Source: a virus. From it: a DNA stretch of 8,031 nt. The number at the start of each line of letters is the position of its first letter. Position 1 is the first letter of the stretch. The stretch is from the IMG/VR virus record IMGVR_UViG_3300008249_000001; one strand, 5' to 3'. Both the position numbers and the translations under genes were made by a program. The notes below the pieces were generated by a model. It did no database searches, was not told where the DNA came from, and worked only from the letters and a program-made list of their open reading frames with translations. Below, piece after piece: positions 1,032 through 2,102 of the stretch.

Positions 1032-2102
1032 TTATCCCCCAAAAATCAAAGCGCGACACGTCCAAGCAGCAGTAATCAACATGCATAAACGTATAAAGGT
1101 AAAAACGTAATTTGGAACCGAAGTTGAAGAAGATCCGTAATCCATATTAGGCCCCATTTTGAAATCAATATTTAAATCAACAGCAGAGCCAGAGTTAGGT
1201 AAATTTAAATCCAAAACATCTAAAATAGGCTGATTTACAAATTCATTTTTTTGATCTTCCCAAACTTGCGAAATACCTTCTGGATAAACAGACTCATAAA
1301 AAGATTCAATAACATCAGGGTCAGGACAAGTAAAAGGATCAACATCACTAGTAGGATTAGGAGAACTATGACAAGAACTGTCATACCAATAAAAATTATT
1401 AGCTACGCAACCAGCCTCATTAAAATAACCCTCTGCAGGAGTTTCAATAATTTCAGCAAATTCATGACAAGCCCCACCATACCAATAATAACTATTAGCC
1501 ACGCAGTCAGACTCATTAAAATATCCTTCTGGGGGAGTTTCGACAATTTCAGGTAGATCATTACAAGTATTGTTATACCAATAATCACCAGATGCGACGC
1601 ATTGCTCAGCTTCAGTTAGTTCAGGCGAATTATTACAAGTGTTGTTATACCAATAACCACCAGATGCGGCGCATTGTTCAATTTCAGTTAGTTCAGGGGA
1701 ATCATTACAGGCATTGTCATACCAGTATTTACCATCTAAAACACATTGTTCGGCTTCTGTTGGTTCAGGATAATCATTACAAGTATTGTTATACCAATAA
1801 TCACCATCTTCCTCGCATTGTTCCTGTGGCGTTAACTCGAAACTTTTATAACAATAACGAAATTGATTTCCGCCGTCAGTCGTATGAAATACATAGCCAC
1901 CCTCATAATCACCAAAATTACAATTTGCGCTACTTGTAGAATAATCACCTGCACAATAATTAGCAGAACCTATACCAGAAGATGAGAAAACAGCATTACA
2001 GTTTAAAGTTGCTGCTTCTTTGTCATCTTCGTAATACCAATAAGTTGCACTATGCGCAGTACCAGATAAAAATAAAATAAATAAAATTAAAAGTGTTTTC
2101 AT
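1032..2102 (-). CDS. pIII-like minor coat / adsorption protein, paralog A, 356 aa, with a tandem Cys-YWY-Cys repeat array
   Basis: It sits directly after the major-coat terminator and before the pVI-like and Zot genes. It has a signal peptide MKTLLILFILFLSGTAHS/ATYW and a C-terminal hydrophobic anchor FTFIRLCMLITAAWTCRALIFGG. The weak RBS (only GGA upstream) fits a low-copy tip protein. Confidence 0.8.
   Translation of the reverse strand: MKTLLILFILFLSGTAHSATYWYYEDDKEAATLNCNAVFSSSGIGSANYCAGDYSTSSANCNFGDYEGGYVFHTTDGGNQFRYCYKSFELTPQEQCEEDGDYWYNNTCNDYPEPTEAEQCVLDGKYWYDNACNDSPELTEIEQCAASGGYWYNNTCNNSPELTEAEQCVASGDYWYNNTCNDLPEIVETPPEGYFNESDCVANSYYWYGGACHEFAEIIETPAEGYFNEAGCVANNFYWYDSSCHSSPNPTSDVDPFTCPDPDVIESFYESVYPEGISQVWEDQKNEFVNQPILDVLDLNLPNSGSAVDLNIDFKMGPNMDYGSSSTSVPNYVFTFIRLCMLITAAWTCRALIFGG
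1371..1838 (-). repeat. In-frame tandem coding repeats: three 72-nt units (1746..1817, 1674..1745, 1602..1673), two 96-nt units (1506..1601, 1410..1505) and a partial sixth unit
   Basis: Cys codons recur at 1817, 1745, 1673, 1601, 1505 and 1409. Each unit encodes C-x5-YWY-x3-C followed by an acidic P/E/T linker (PELTEAEQ or PEIVETPPEGYFNESD). The DNA units are clearly alignable by eye. Confidence 0.9.

Follow-up and report, generated by a model that had tools for sequence, protein, structure and literature searches.

The pIII proteins of filamentous phages underlie phage display and attempts at phage retargeting. In the Ff phages (M13, fd and f1) the g3p protein follows the plan N1, glycine-rich linker, N2, glycine-rich linker and CT, and the linkers of filamentous-phage pIII proteins are generally taken as glycine-rich and disordered (PMC12477597). 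The 8,031 nucleotides of viral DNA analysed here, IMG/VR record IMGVR_UViG_3300008249_000001 (the window, at its full length), contain on the minus strand a gene for a pIII-like adsorption protein, paralog A (positions 1032-2102, 356 amino acids and a stop codon), which was assigned from the list of open reading frames (ORFs) and from PHROG and homologue matches. Its product carries, in the slot of the linker, a tandem array of six Tyr-Trp-Tyr (YWY) modules, each flanked by two cysteines. The pIII-type protein itself is known, and what is new is that a mini-domain repeat not described before takes the place of its linker.

The placement of paralog A among the pIII proteins comes from its C-terminal domain (amino acids 251-356, positions 1035-1352, minus strand), which includes a hydrophobic anchor. 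The last 100 amino acids match phrog_31956 (E = 4e-21), phrog_4544 and phrog_19407, all three being PHROG families without an assigned function, and tblastn searches aligned the domain, at about 28-34% identity, with the C-termini of VGJphi ORF493, of the VEJphi, ND1-fs1 and VP24-2 proteins and of Pf CoaA, with E values from 4e-9 to 9e-4 and with the matches covering just 25-30% of the paralog A query. The Vibrio-phage homologues are annotated as adsorption, attachment or minor-coat proteins, and since the C-terminal domain is homologous to these and to CoaA, 'pIII paralog' is a fair label. The repeat region was matched by none of these proteins. Two cysteines of the C-terminal domain, one in 'PFTC/FEC' at about amino acid 259 and one in the anchor motif 'TCR' at about amino acid 349, occur together in four sequences of alignment A3 and are together missing from the pIII of another inovirus (L004); they may be a conserved pair, perhaps a disulfide, joining the start of the domain to the anchor.

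The six-module array of paralog A

The remainder of the protein is divided into three parts, all encoded on the minus strand. A predicted signal peptide (amino acids 1-18, MKTLLILFILFLSGTAHS, positions 2049-2102) would be cleaved, as read from the sequence, before ATYWYY, and by eye it shows an n-region with Lys, an h-region of Leu, Ile and Phe and the residues A-H-S at -3 to -1. It is followed by an N-terminal orphan domain with four cysteines (amino acids 19-88, positions 1839-2048), for which the homologue search returned only the protein itself; pIII proteins have their receptor-binding domains at the N-terminus too, and by this analogy it is a putative receptor-binding head. The acidic repeat array then occupies amino acids 89-250 (positions 1353-1838) and consists of four 24-residue units followed by two 32-residue units.

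The 356-residue translation holds exactly six matches to C-x5-YWY-x3-C. From the N-terminus these are module 1 (CEEDGDYWYNNTC, amino acids 96-108, positions 1779-1817), module 2 (CVLDGKYWYDNAC, amino acids 120-132, positions 1707-1745), module 3 (CAASGGYWYNNTC, amino acids 144-156, positions 1635-1673), module 4 (CVASGDYWYNNTC, amino acids 168-180, positions 1563-1601), module 5 (CVANSYYWYGGAC, amino acids 200-212, positions 1467-1505) and module 6 (CVANNFYWYDSSC, amino acids 232-244, positions 1371-1409), again all on the minus strand, the last two lying in the 32-residue units with EGYFNE linkers. The translation thereby confirms, at matching coordinates, the six modules and the linkers that an earlier sequence-only reading had listed. 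That reading had also described repeats in the DNA, and these are found as four tandem units of 72 nt and two of 96 nt: Tandem Repeats Finder reports 3.6 copies of a 72-nt unit at 1548-1806 (78% matches) and 2.3 copies of a 96-nt unit at 1368-1585 (76% matches), and a second repeat search agrees.

Since the strict motif is expected 1.6e-4 times per protein from the composition, and since only 11 of 100,000 shuffles gave one match or more, the six copies are not due to chance. The ENA assembly record L002 (7,985 bp) contains the same genome and is 100% identical throughout, the array included, which argues against mis-assembly. The net charge over the 162 residues of the array is -31, Lys occurring once and Arg not at all, and the array contains 12 Cys, 16 Tyr, 6 Trp and 6% Gly (10/162). 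The 39-nt module cores are 59-92% identical in DNA and differ by 84 nonsynonymous against 24 synonymous codon differences. The Cys, the Tyr-Trp-Tyr and the second Cys are unchanged in all six units, and the codons of the first Cys (TGC/TGT) and of the first Tyr (TAC/TAT) vary synonymously; the invariance of these residues amid diverged units, with codons that vary silently, points to selection on them. The turns read NN, DN, GG or DS, the residue after the second cysteine is N or H, and a Pro follows four residues after this cysteine in five of the six modules.

The linkers of the two long units (amino acids 181-231) contain PPEGYFNESDC and PAEGYFNEAGC, that is the pattern P-x-x-G-Y-x-N-E-x-x-C. 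The same pattern was seen in a protein (P0093, L005 5074-6378) of an unrelated 34-kb viral contig, PADPGGYDNEADC, and because of this second occurrence the long-linker form is taken as a recurrent subtype and not as a local accident.

The module family and its predicted fold

A 30-column profile (A1) built from 17 modules was searched against 1.84 billion protein cluster representatives and found 346 protein clusters at E<=1e-3, 99 at <=1e-10 and 8 at <=1e-30. Most of the 346 clusters carry 2-13 copies of the module in tandem, together with partner domains of extracellular type. Re-extraction with a hidden Markov model (HMM) from 153 family proteins gave 590 modules, and among those aligned at each position the first cysteine (Cys1) was present in 567/567, the second (Cys2) in 576/576 and the Trp in 583/587. 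The consensus across the HMM-extracted modules is C-E-A-A-G-G-Y-W-Y-[ND]-[NG]-x-C-[NH]-x-x-P, and all six window modules fit the family core C-x5-[YF]-W-[YW]-x3-C. Conservation of the Cys pairs in homologues, on which the earlier idea of disulfide modules depended, was thus observed, both cysteines being present in every homologue and in all 590 HMM-detected modules.

No named family was found for the module. Pfam gave only spurious matches to the window protein or to the array at E<=10, CW_binding_1 not being among them, and NCBIfam gave no match. PDB sequences searched with the full protein and with the module profile returned chance matches only (best E = 0.63), and a literature search brought up no paper that describes the motif or structured linkers in pIII. 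In 105 family proteins no Pfam or NCBIfam family was common to more than four; the domains found outside the modules were CARDB, PKD, Lcl_C, InlB B-repeat, FISUMP, LytR, F5/8-C and others. The 'acidic double-disulfide repeat' NF033662 was considered as a named relative and rejected, being present in one of the 105 members, in none of the 10 module-rich proteins and not in the window protein. The sequence-only reading, which did not recognise the module as a named repeat, therefore stands on this point for Pfam, NCBIfam, PDB sequences and Foldseek. The module is however not specific to phages, its family comprising at least 346 protein clusters that are mostly cellular. Judged by its sequence, the module is a small, real and unnamed family and not a phage invention.

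The predicted fold of the module was obtained with AlphaFold2. Without an alignment modules 1-4 were modelled at a predicted local distance difference test (pLDDT) score of 70-89 and the pattern of helix plus hairpin was already present. With alignment A4, comprising 39 in-register rows of four-module arrays, amino acids 89-192 reached a mean pLDDT of 93.1 and a predicted template modelling (pTM) score of 0.48, and helix plus hairpin was repeated four times over. Each modelled unit consists of a 7-residue helix (PQEQCEE) that holds Cys1, the strand YWY, a two-residue turn and the strand T-C-N, and the linkers were modelled as ordered, with pLDDT above 90. When the pLDDT-93 model was searched with Foldseek, a method that is weak for very small domains, there were 0 PDB matches at E<=10 and nothing significant in BFVD (best 1.2e-2); a single-sequence model of the whole protein (mean pLDDT 49) gave meaningless matches only.

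The model bears on the earlier suggestion of disulfide-stapled hairpins, of which the hairpin is retained and the simple closure of a hairpin by its two cysteines is not, Cys1 being situated on the helix. Because the Trp lies cross-strand from Cys2 in the model, a disulfide would rather fasten the helix to that face of the hairpin on which the Trp lies. Additional cysteines were counted in 483 modules: 247 have two upstream of the core, in 108 one is upstream and the other internal, 80 are pure two-Cys modules, the type found in the phage, and about 40 have an odd number. The extra cysteines are mostly paired while the core pair is constant, and a disulfide of their own is therefore expected for Cys1 and Cys2. 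From the Cys invariance and parity, together with the predicted helix-hairpin fold, we infer that an intramodule Cys1-Cys2 disulfide is probably formed. Two other roles for the conserved residues were considered. Zinc binding was rejected because of the presence of just two cysteines per module, the lack of a conserved His after Cys2 (N or H) and the predicted export of the protein. N-glycosylation at an NNT/NNS sequon was set aside, the family positions being [ND]-[NG], as is typical of a tight beta-turn.

Only three loci were found to join the module, a pIII-type C-terminal domain and Zot, namely the window, a locus in a Pseudomonadales metagenome-assembled genome (MAG; L001) and the 8.9-kb IMG/VR inovirus L004; to these is added a partial protein with two modules (P0008). 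The L001 protein (P0002) has three modules with a 30-residue period, and in the L004 protein (P0028) the modules are scattered among other domains. All other carriers look cellular or come from other kinds of viral contig. Two gammaproteobacterial loci were considered as prophages and rejected: L091 (Cellvibrionales) holds a cellular Cys-rich protein, and in L024 (Colwellia) no module is present.

Genomes were scanned with a back-translated YWYNNxCN DNA pattern, for which we estimate about 17 chance matches; only ORFs with a Cys-flanked module were counted, and the taxonomy was taken from multi-module ORFs. Among the matches listed, the multi-module ORFs in species-representative genomes are mainly from Omnitrophota, the candidate phyla radiation (CPR/Patescibacteria), DPANN archaea, Desulfobacterota-type deltaproteobacteria, Bdellovibrionales and Leptospira. 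With its Omnitrophota, CPR and DPANN carriers the family seems, on these matches, to be concentrated in ultra-small, often host-attached lineages. An ORF of Omnitrophota L071 has 13 copies. The Omnitrophota surface proteins (L071 132-4049; also L018, L025, L099, L120 and L121) are very large and carry the repeat in its four-Cys version, in up to 13 copies, in the form TCADGIQYC-LTSAEC-xxxG-YWYNNTCN. The closest linker match was the chromosomal lipoprotein WP_130566219.1 of the marine gammaproteobacterium Corallincola spongiicola, with 'EPTPQEQC' for the 'ELTPQEQC' of the phage; this protein consists of a lipobox, a Gly stretch, three modules and an FG-GAP/VCBS domain.

Possible functions of the array

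In five pIII relatives found through the shared C-terminal domain (L129-L132 and L134) there are no modules, and directly upstream of the domain these proteins have poly-Thr/Ser, Ala/Gln-rich or acidic low-complexity stretches. In the L004 pIII the modules are situated at the boundaries of globular segments, beside a Gly-rich DTGGG linker. Known inovirus receptor-binding proteins have glycine-rich linkers at this position (PMC12477597). In the cellular family members, the array is internal in 87 of 153 proteins, with at least 80 amino acids on both sides, and it lies 60 amino acids or less from a hydrophobic anchor segment in 25. Arrays just after an N-terminal anchor were found in P0017, P0041 and P0044, P0017 having the order transmembrane segment, five modules and FISUMP domain, and arrays just before a C-terminal anchor in P0042, P0066 and P0010-like proteins; the Corallincola lipoprotein, with its modules between the lipobox and a globular domain, is a further example. 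At their C-termini P0042 and P0066 show a PGF-like motif and then a hydrophobic segment with a basic tail behind it (PGPGFELAMLMAAMVVALVAISVARRRQ), presumably resembling the archaeal PGF-CTERM sorting signals, and their modules are placed exactly where S-layer-type proteins have a Thr-rich stalk.

A stalk is the most economical reading of the array, given its position in the pIII relatives, in L004 and in the cellular proteins, its low Gly content and its charge of -31. We lean modestly towards the view, resting on sequence and model, that the flexible pIII linker is replaced here by a stalk, the array being structured, acidic and stapled by disulfides. By this mechanism the signal peptide would export the protein to the periplasm and the C-terminal domain would anchor it at the virion tip. 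Every 24- or 32-residue unit would fold independently as a mini-domain, in which a short acidic helix bearing Cys1 would be followed by a two-stranded beta-hairpin (YWY, an Asn/Asp-Asn/Gly turn and x-C-N/H), and the Cys1-Cys2 disulfide, packed on the invariant Trp, would staple the helix to the hairpin. The six beads, with short Pro/Glu/Thr joints and about 31 net negative charges, would keep the N-terminal head off the tip. The array would so do the job of the glycine-rich linkers in Ff pIII and, in the closer relatives, that of the poly-Thr, Ala/Gln-rich or acidic linkers.

The idea of a stalk was already part of the sequence-only reading and gains positional support from the linker slot in the pIII relatives and from the anchors and domain boundaries in the cellular proteins. 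The earlier interpretation is on the whole partly supported: export, where the signal peptide is read directly, the Cys pairs, the unnamed family and the idea of a stalk hold. Some points weigh against the stalk. The pTM of only 0.48 makes the arrangement between the modules, and hence the rigidity, uncertain. The disulfide is deduced from sequence parity and a predicted fold, and the orphan N-terminal domain is a putative receptor binder by its position. Furthermore, the aromatic triad, invariant as it is, could have a part in binding as well as in the fold core, and large putative structural proteins on non-filamentous viral contigs carry the module too, binding being equally plausible there.

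The last two points lead to the alternative that the array itself binds, being a multivalent, aromatic, lectin- or adhesin-like surface for a repetitive host structure such as a capsule, a lipopolysaccharide glycan or a pilus shaft, with the Tyr faces of the hairpins exposed and with an avidity given by six modules times up to five pIII copies. The YWY is invariant over 590 modules, the two hairpin Tyr lie opposite the Trp/disulfide face and may be exposed according to the DSSP register of the model, and the cellular partner domains (CARDB, PKD, Lcl_C, InlB B-repeat and F5/8 type C) are typical of adhesins and surfaces; the module's occurrence in the structural proteins of other viral contigs also speaks for binding. 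However, the pIII relatives work with featureless low-complexity linkers in this slot, the small set of conserved residues (C, W, Y, P and G) is the one that a 24-residue domain needs to fold, and the non-core positions vary freely among modules within one protein. The conserved Pro four residues past Cys2 may moreover cover the Tyr face. The CW_binding_1 choline- and cell-wall-binding repeats, of about 20 amino acids, are the model for such binding and are likewise short tandem aromatic-rich beta-hairpins, but they have neither Cys nor helix, and the array, which differs from the known aromatic binding repeats, matched neither these nor any other Pfam family at E<=10 beyond the spurious. On balance binding by the array is unlikely. 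A farther-reaching proposal treats the YWY module as a new kind of alpha/beta mini-domain, autonomous and stapled by a disulfide, whose role is multivalent adhesion or glycan binding and which is shared by marine gammaproteobacterial filamentous phages and by surface proteins of the ultra-small, often host-attached Omnitrophota, CPR and DPANN. In this phage the array, and not the N-terminal domain, would then be the primary host recognition element, tunable by copy number; this we regard as quite unlikely.

The array could also serve robustness or assembly, either by giving protease and shear resistance in seawater or by allowing five acidic stalks to be bundled by divalent cations into a rigid needle. 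Disulfide-stapled mini-domains are inherently protease-resistant, the charge of -31 (one Lys, Arg absent) and the ordered linkers (pLDDT above 90) are in line with it, the nearest relative was found in a Pseudomonadales MAG, and the marine Corallincola protein has the same linker type. This explanation overlaps heavily with the stalk, from which the sequence cannot separate it, and the strong negative charge opposes bundling unless cations bridge the chains; as a function of its own it is quite improbable. That the array is an artefact or chance, either a mis-assembled tandem repeat, as the low coverage of the ENA assembly (about 4x by the contig name) might allow, or a non-coding repeat translating to Cys/Tyr/Trp-rich peptides, is effectively refuted by the 100% identical second assembly record, by units so diverged (59-92%) that their k-mers are unique, by the 356-codon open frame with homologous N- and C-terminal context, by recurrence of the module in 346 independent protein clusters and by the chance expectation of 1.6e-4.

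Whether considered as a stalk or as a binding surface, the array had been proposed earlier to vary in copy number through its tandem DNA repeats. Such variation was found between related phages, with 6, 3 and at least 2 modules, and the cellular arrays have 1 to 13 copies. No copy-number variant of the window phage itself was found, its sole other assembly (L002) being identical, and a full-protein search of viral and metagenome contig collections returned no close relatives. A 34-nt exact repeat, with copies in unit 4 (positions 1557-1590) and unit 1 (positions 1773-1806), is the longest exact identity inside the array and the only long one; judged by its placement it is a possible substrate for an in-frame deletion or duplication of three units. 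Copy-number variation in this phage is plausible.

Genome context and comparison with known systems

The window ends with a terminal overlap of 123 nt (1-123 = 7909-8031) and represents a complete circular filamentous-phage genome of 7,908 bp. A second pIII-like gene, paralog B (359 amino acids, minus strand), was reconstructed on this circle, starting at 1030, running to 1 and continuing across the circle junction to 7859; the last 50 nt of the coding sequence, with the C-terminal anchor and the stop codon, lie beyond the junction at 7859-7908. Its start is two bases past the stop codon of A. The two paralogs are alike only in the C-terminal domain, with 48% identity over the C-terminal 107 amino acids and the same PHROG matches. 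The relative L001 also has the A and B pair, the second paralog being at L001 1351-1992, which suggests, as far as gene content can tell, a tip complex of two adsorption proteins with different heads.

Degenerate module-like motifs, CEYEGYFWHK and CLDAGFRWHY (amino acids 43-55 and 94-104), were seen in paralog B. The N-terminal domain of the L001 protein P0002 carries C-NADQGA-FWW, and mature paralog A starts with ATYWYYEDD...C (amino acids 20-35), where a seventh YWY (amino acids 21-23) without a Cys pair is situated just past the predicted cleavage site. Going by these motifs, the pIII heads may have evolved from, or may include, decayed modules.

The structural genes are all on the minus strand and in the standard filamentous-phage order of coat, pIII-A, pIII-B, DUF2523 and Zot. 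The major coat protein (44 amino acids, positions 2253-2387; phrog_3354, E = 4e-25) is separated from paralog A by a 32-residue ORF and from the RstB-like DNA-binding protein (positions 2653-3072) by a gene for a 78-residue protein, both on the minus strand, as are the DUF2523/Ace-like pVI (positions 7517-7855), Zot/pI (positions 6345-7520) and the Rep_1-type replication protein (positions 3455-5044). A DNA-level search of phage records found none close to the window genome. The nearest Zot proteins, 38-44% identical, are those of 'Phage silverpheasant213' and of the Vibrio phages Vf33 and Vf12. A strong intrinsic terminator on the minus strand, GGGGGCTTAGGCCCC followed by a T-run (positions 2120-2135), separates the coat-protein genes from pIII-A and resembles that of the Ff phages, in which a terminator after gene VIII lowers gene III expression.

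The window Rep is of the Rep_1 type (PF01446, plasmid-type rolling-circle), and the close relative L001, whose Zot matches that of the window phage at E = 1.7e-197, has a Phage_CRI/G2P protein instead (L001 4650-5858); on the evidence of these matches the replication module is swapped between otherwise related phages. Two small plus-strand ORFs, 3064-3261 (65 amino acids) and 3313-3429 (38 amino acids), lie between the Rep and RstB-like genes and run opposite to all the structural genes. They had no PHROG match and are followed by a GC-rich hairpin, GGGGCGGAGCCCC, with a T-run (positions 3430-3455); together these may be a regulatory cassette. On the minus strand, a 143-residue protein (positions 5179-5610) has an N-terminal helix-turn-helix/excisionase-like match (phrog_22784 and phrog_66), and a 132-residue ORF (positions 5957-6355) is without a family match; the two genes occupy a region that is usual for regulators or accessory genes.

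The finding is real but modest, and no current view of phage biology is overturned. A 24-residue, confidently predicted and probably disulfide-stapled repeat spacer would be a different design solution for pIII linkers, and phage engineering could use the module to build display stalks that are rigid and resist proteases. The family, with at least 346 clusters outside the searched Pfam, NCBIfam and PDB libraries, provides an annotation handle for 'hypothetical' surface proteins, and it is prominent, among the matches listed, in the poorly understood lineages Omnitrophota, CPR and DPANN.

The window was compared with the cellular YWY repeats (L071, WP_130566219.1 and P0003-P0007 with CARDB), which share the core C-x5-[YF]-W-[YW]-[ND]-[NG]-x-C-[NH]-x-x-P, the tandem arrangement and the acidic or Pro linkers. 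Two-Cys versions with a 24-residue period occur in the cellular family in P0013, P0017 and P0041, whereas most cellular copies (355/483) have a second Cys pair and a period of 28-35 residues and, unlike those of the phage, are joined to cellular domains and not to a pIII C-terminal domain. By analogy only, the array is like the EGF-like, LDL-receptor class A and TSP1 domains, which also are tandem, independent, disulfide-stabilised beads forming a semi-rigid extracellular stalk, and in a few proteins of the family Ldl_recept_a or TSP1 domains occur in other parts of the chain. The number and spacing of the cysteines are however different from these domains, and the module gave no profile match to them.

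The loci of VGJphi, VEJphi, ND1-fs1, VP24-2 and Pf CoaA share with the window the neighbourhood of RstB-like, coat, pIII, Ace/DUF2523 and Zot genes. Unlike in the Vibrio-phage adsorption proteins and CoaA, the repeat region in the window is without a counterpart and the N-terminal domain is an orphan. As in Ff g3p, the gene for paralog A has the major coat gene ahead of it and the pVI-like and pI-like genes behind it, and the product has a predicted signal peptide, a Cys-containing N-terminal head, a repetitive spacer encoded by repetitive DNA and a C-terminal anchor domain. Sequence similarity to g3p was not detectable, a PDB sequence search in a library expected to include g3p giving no match at E<=10. 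In contrast to the Gly-rich linkers of Ff, of the GGGS/EGGGS type, the array has 6% Gly and is strongly acidic, predicted to be folded and probably disulfide-stapled, and there are two tandem pIII-like paralogs here where Ff has one gene.

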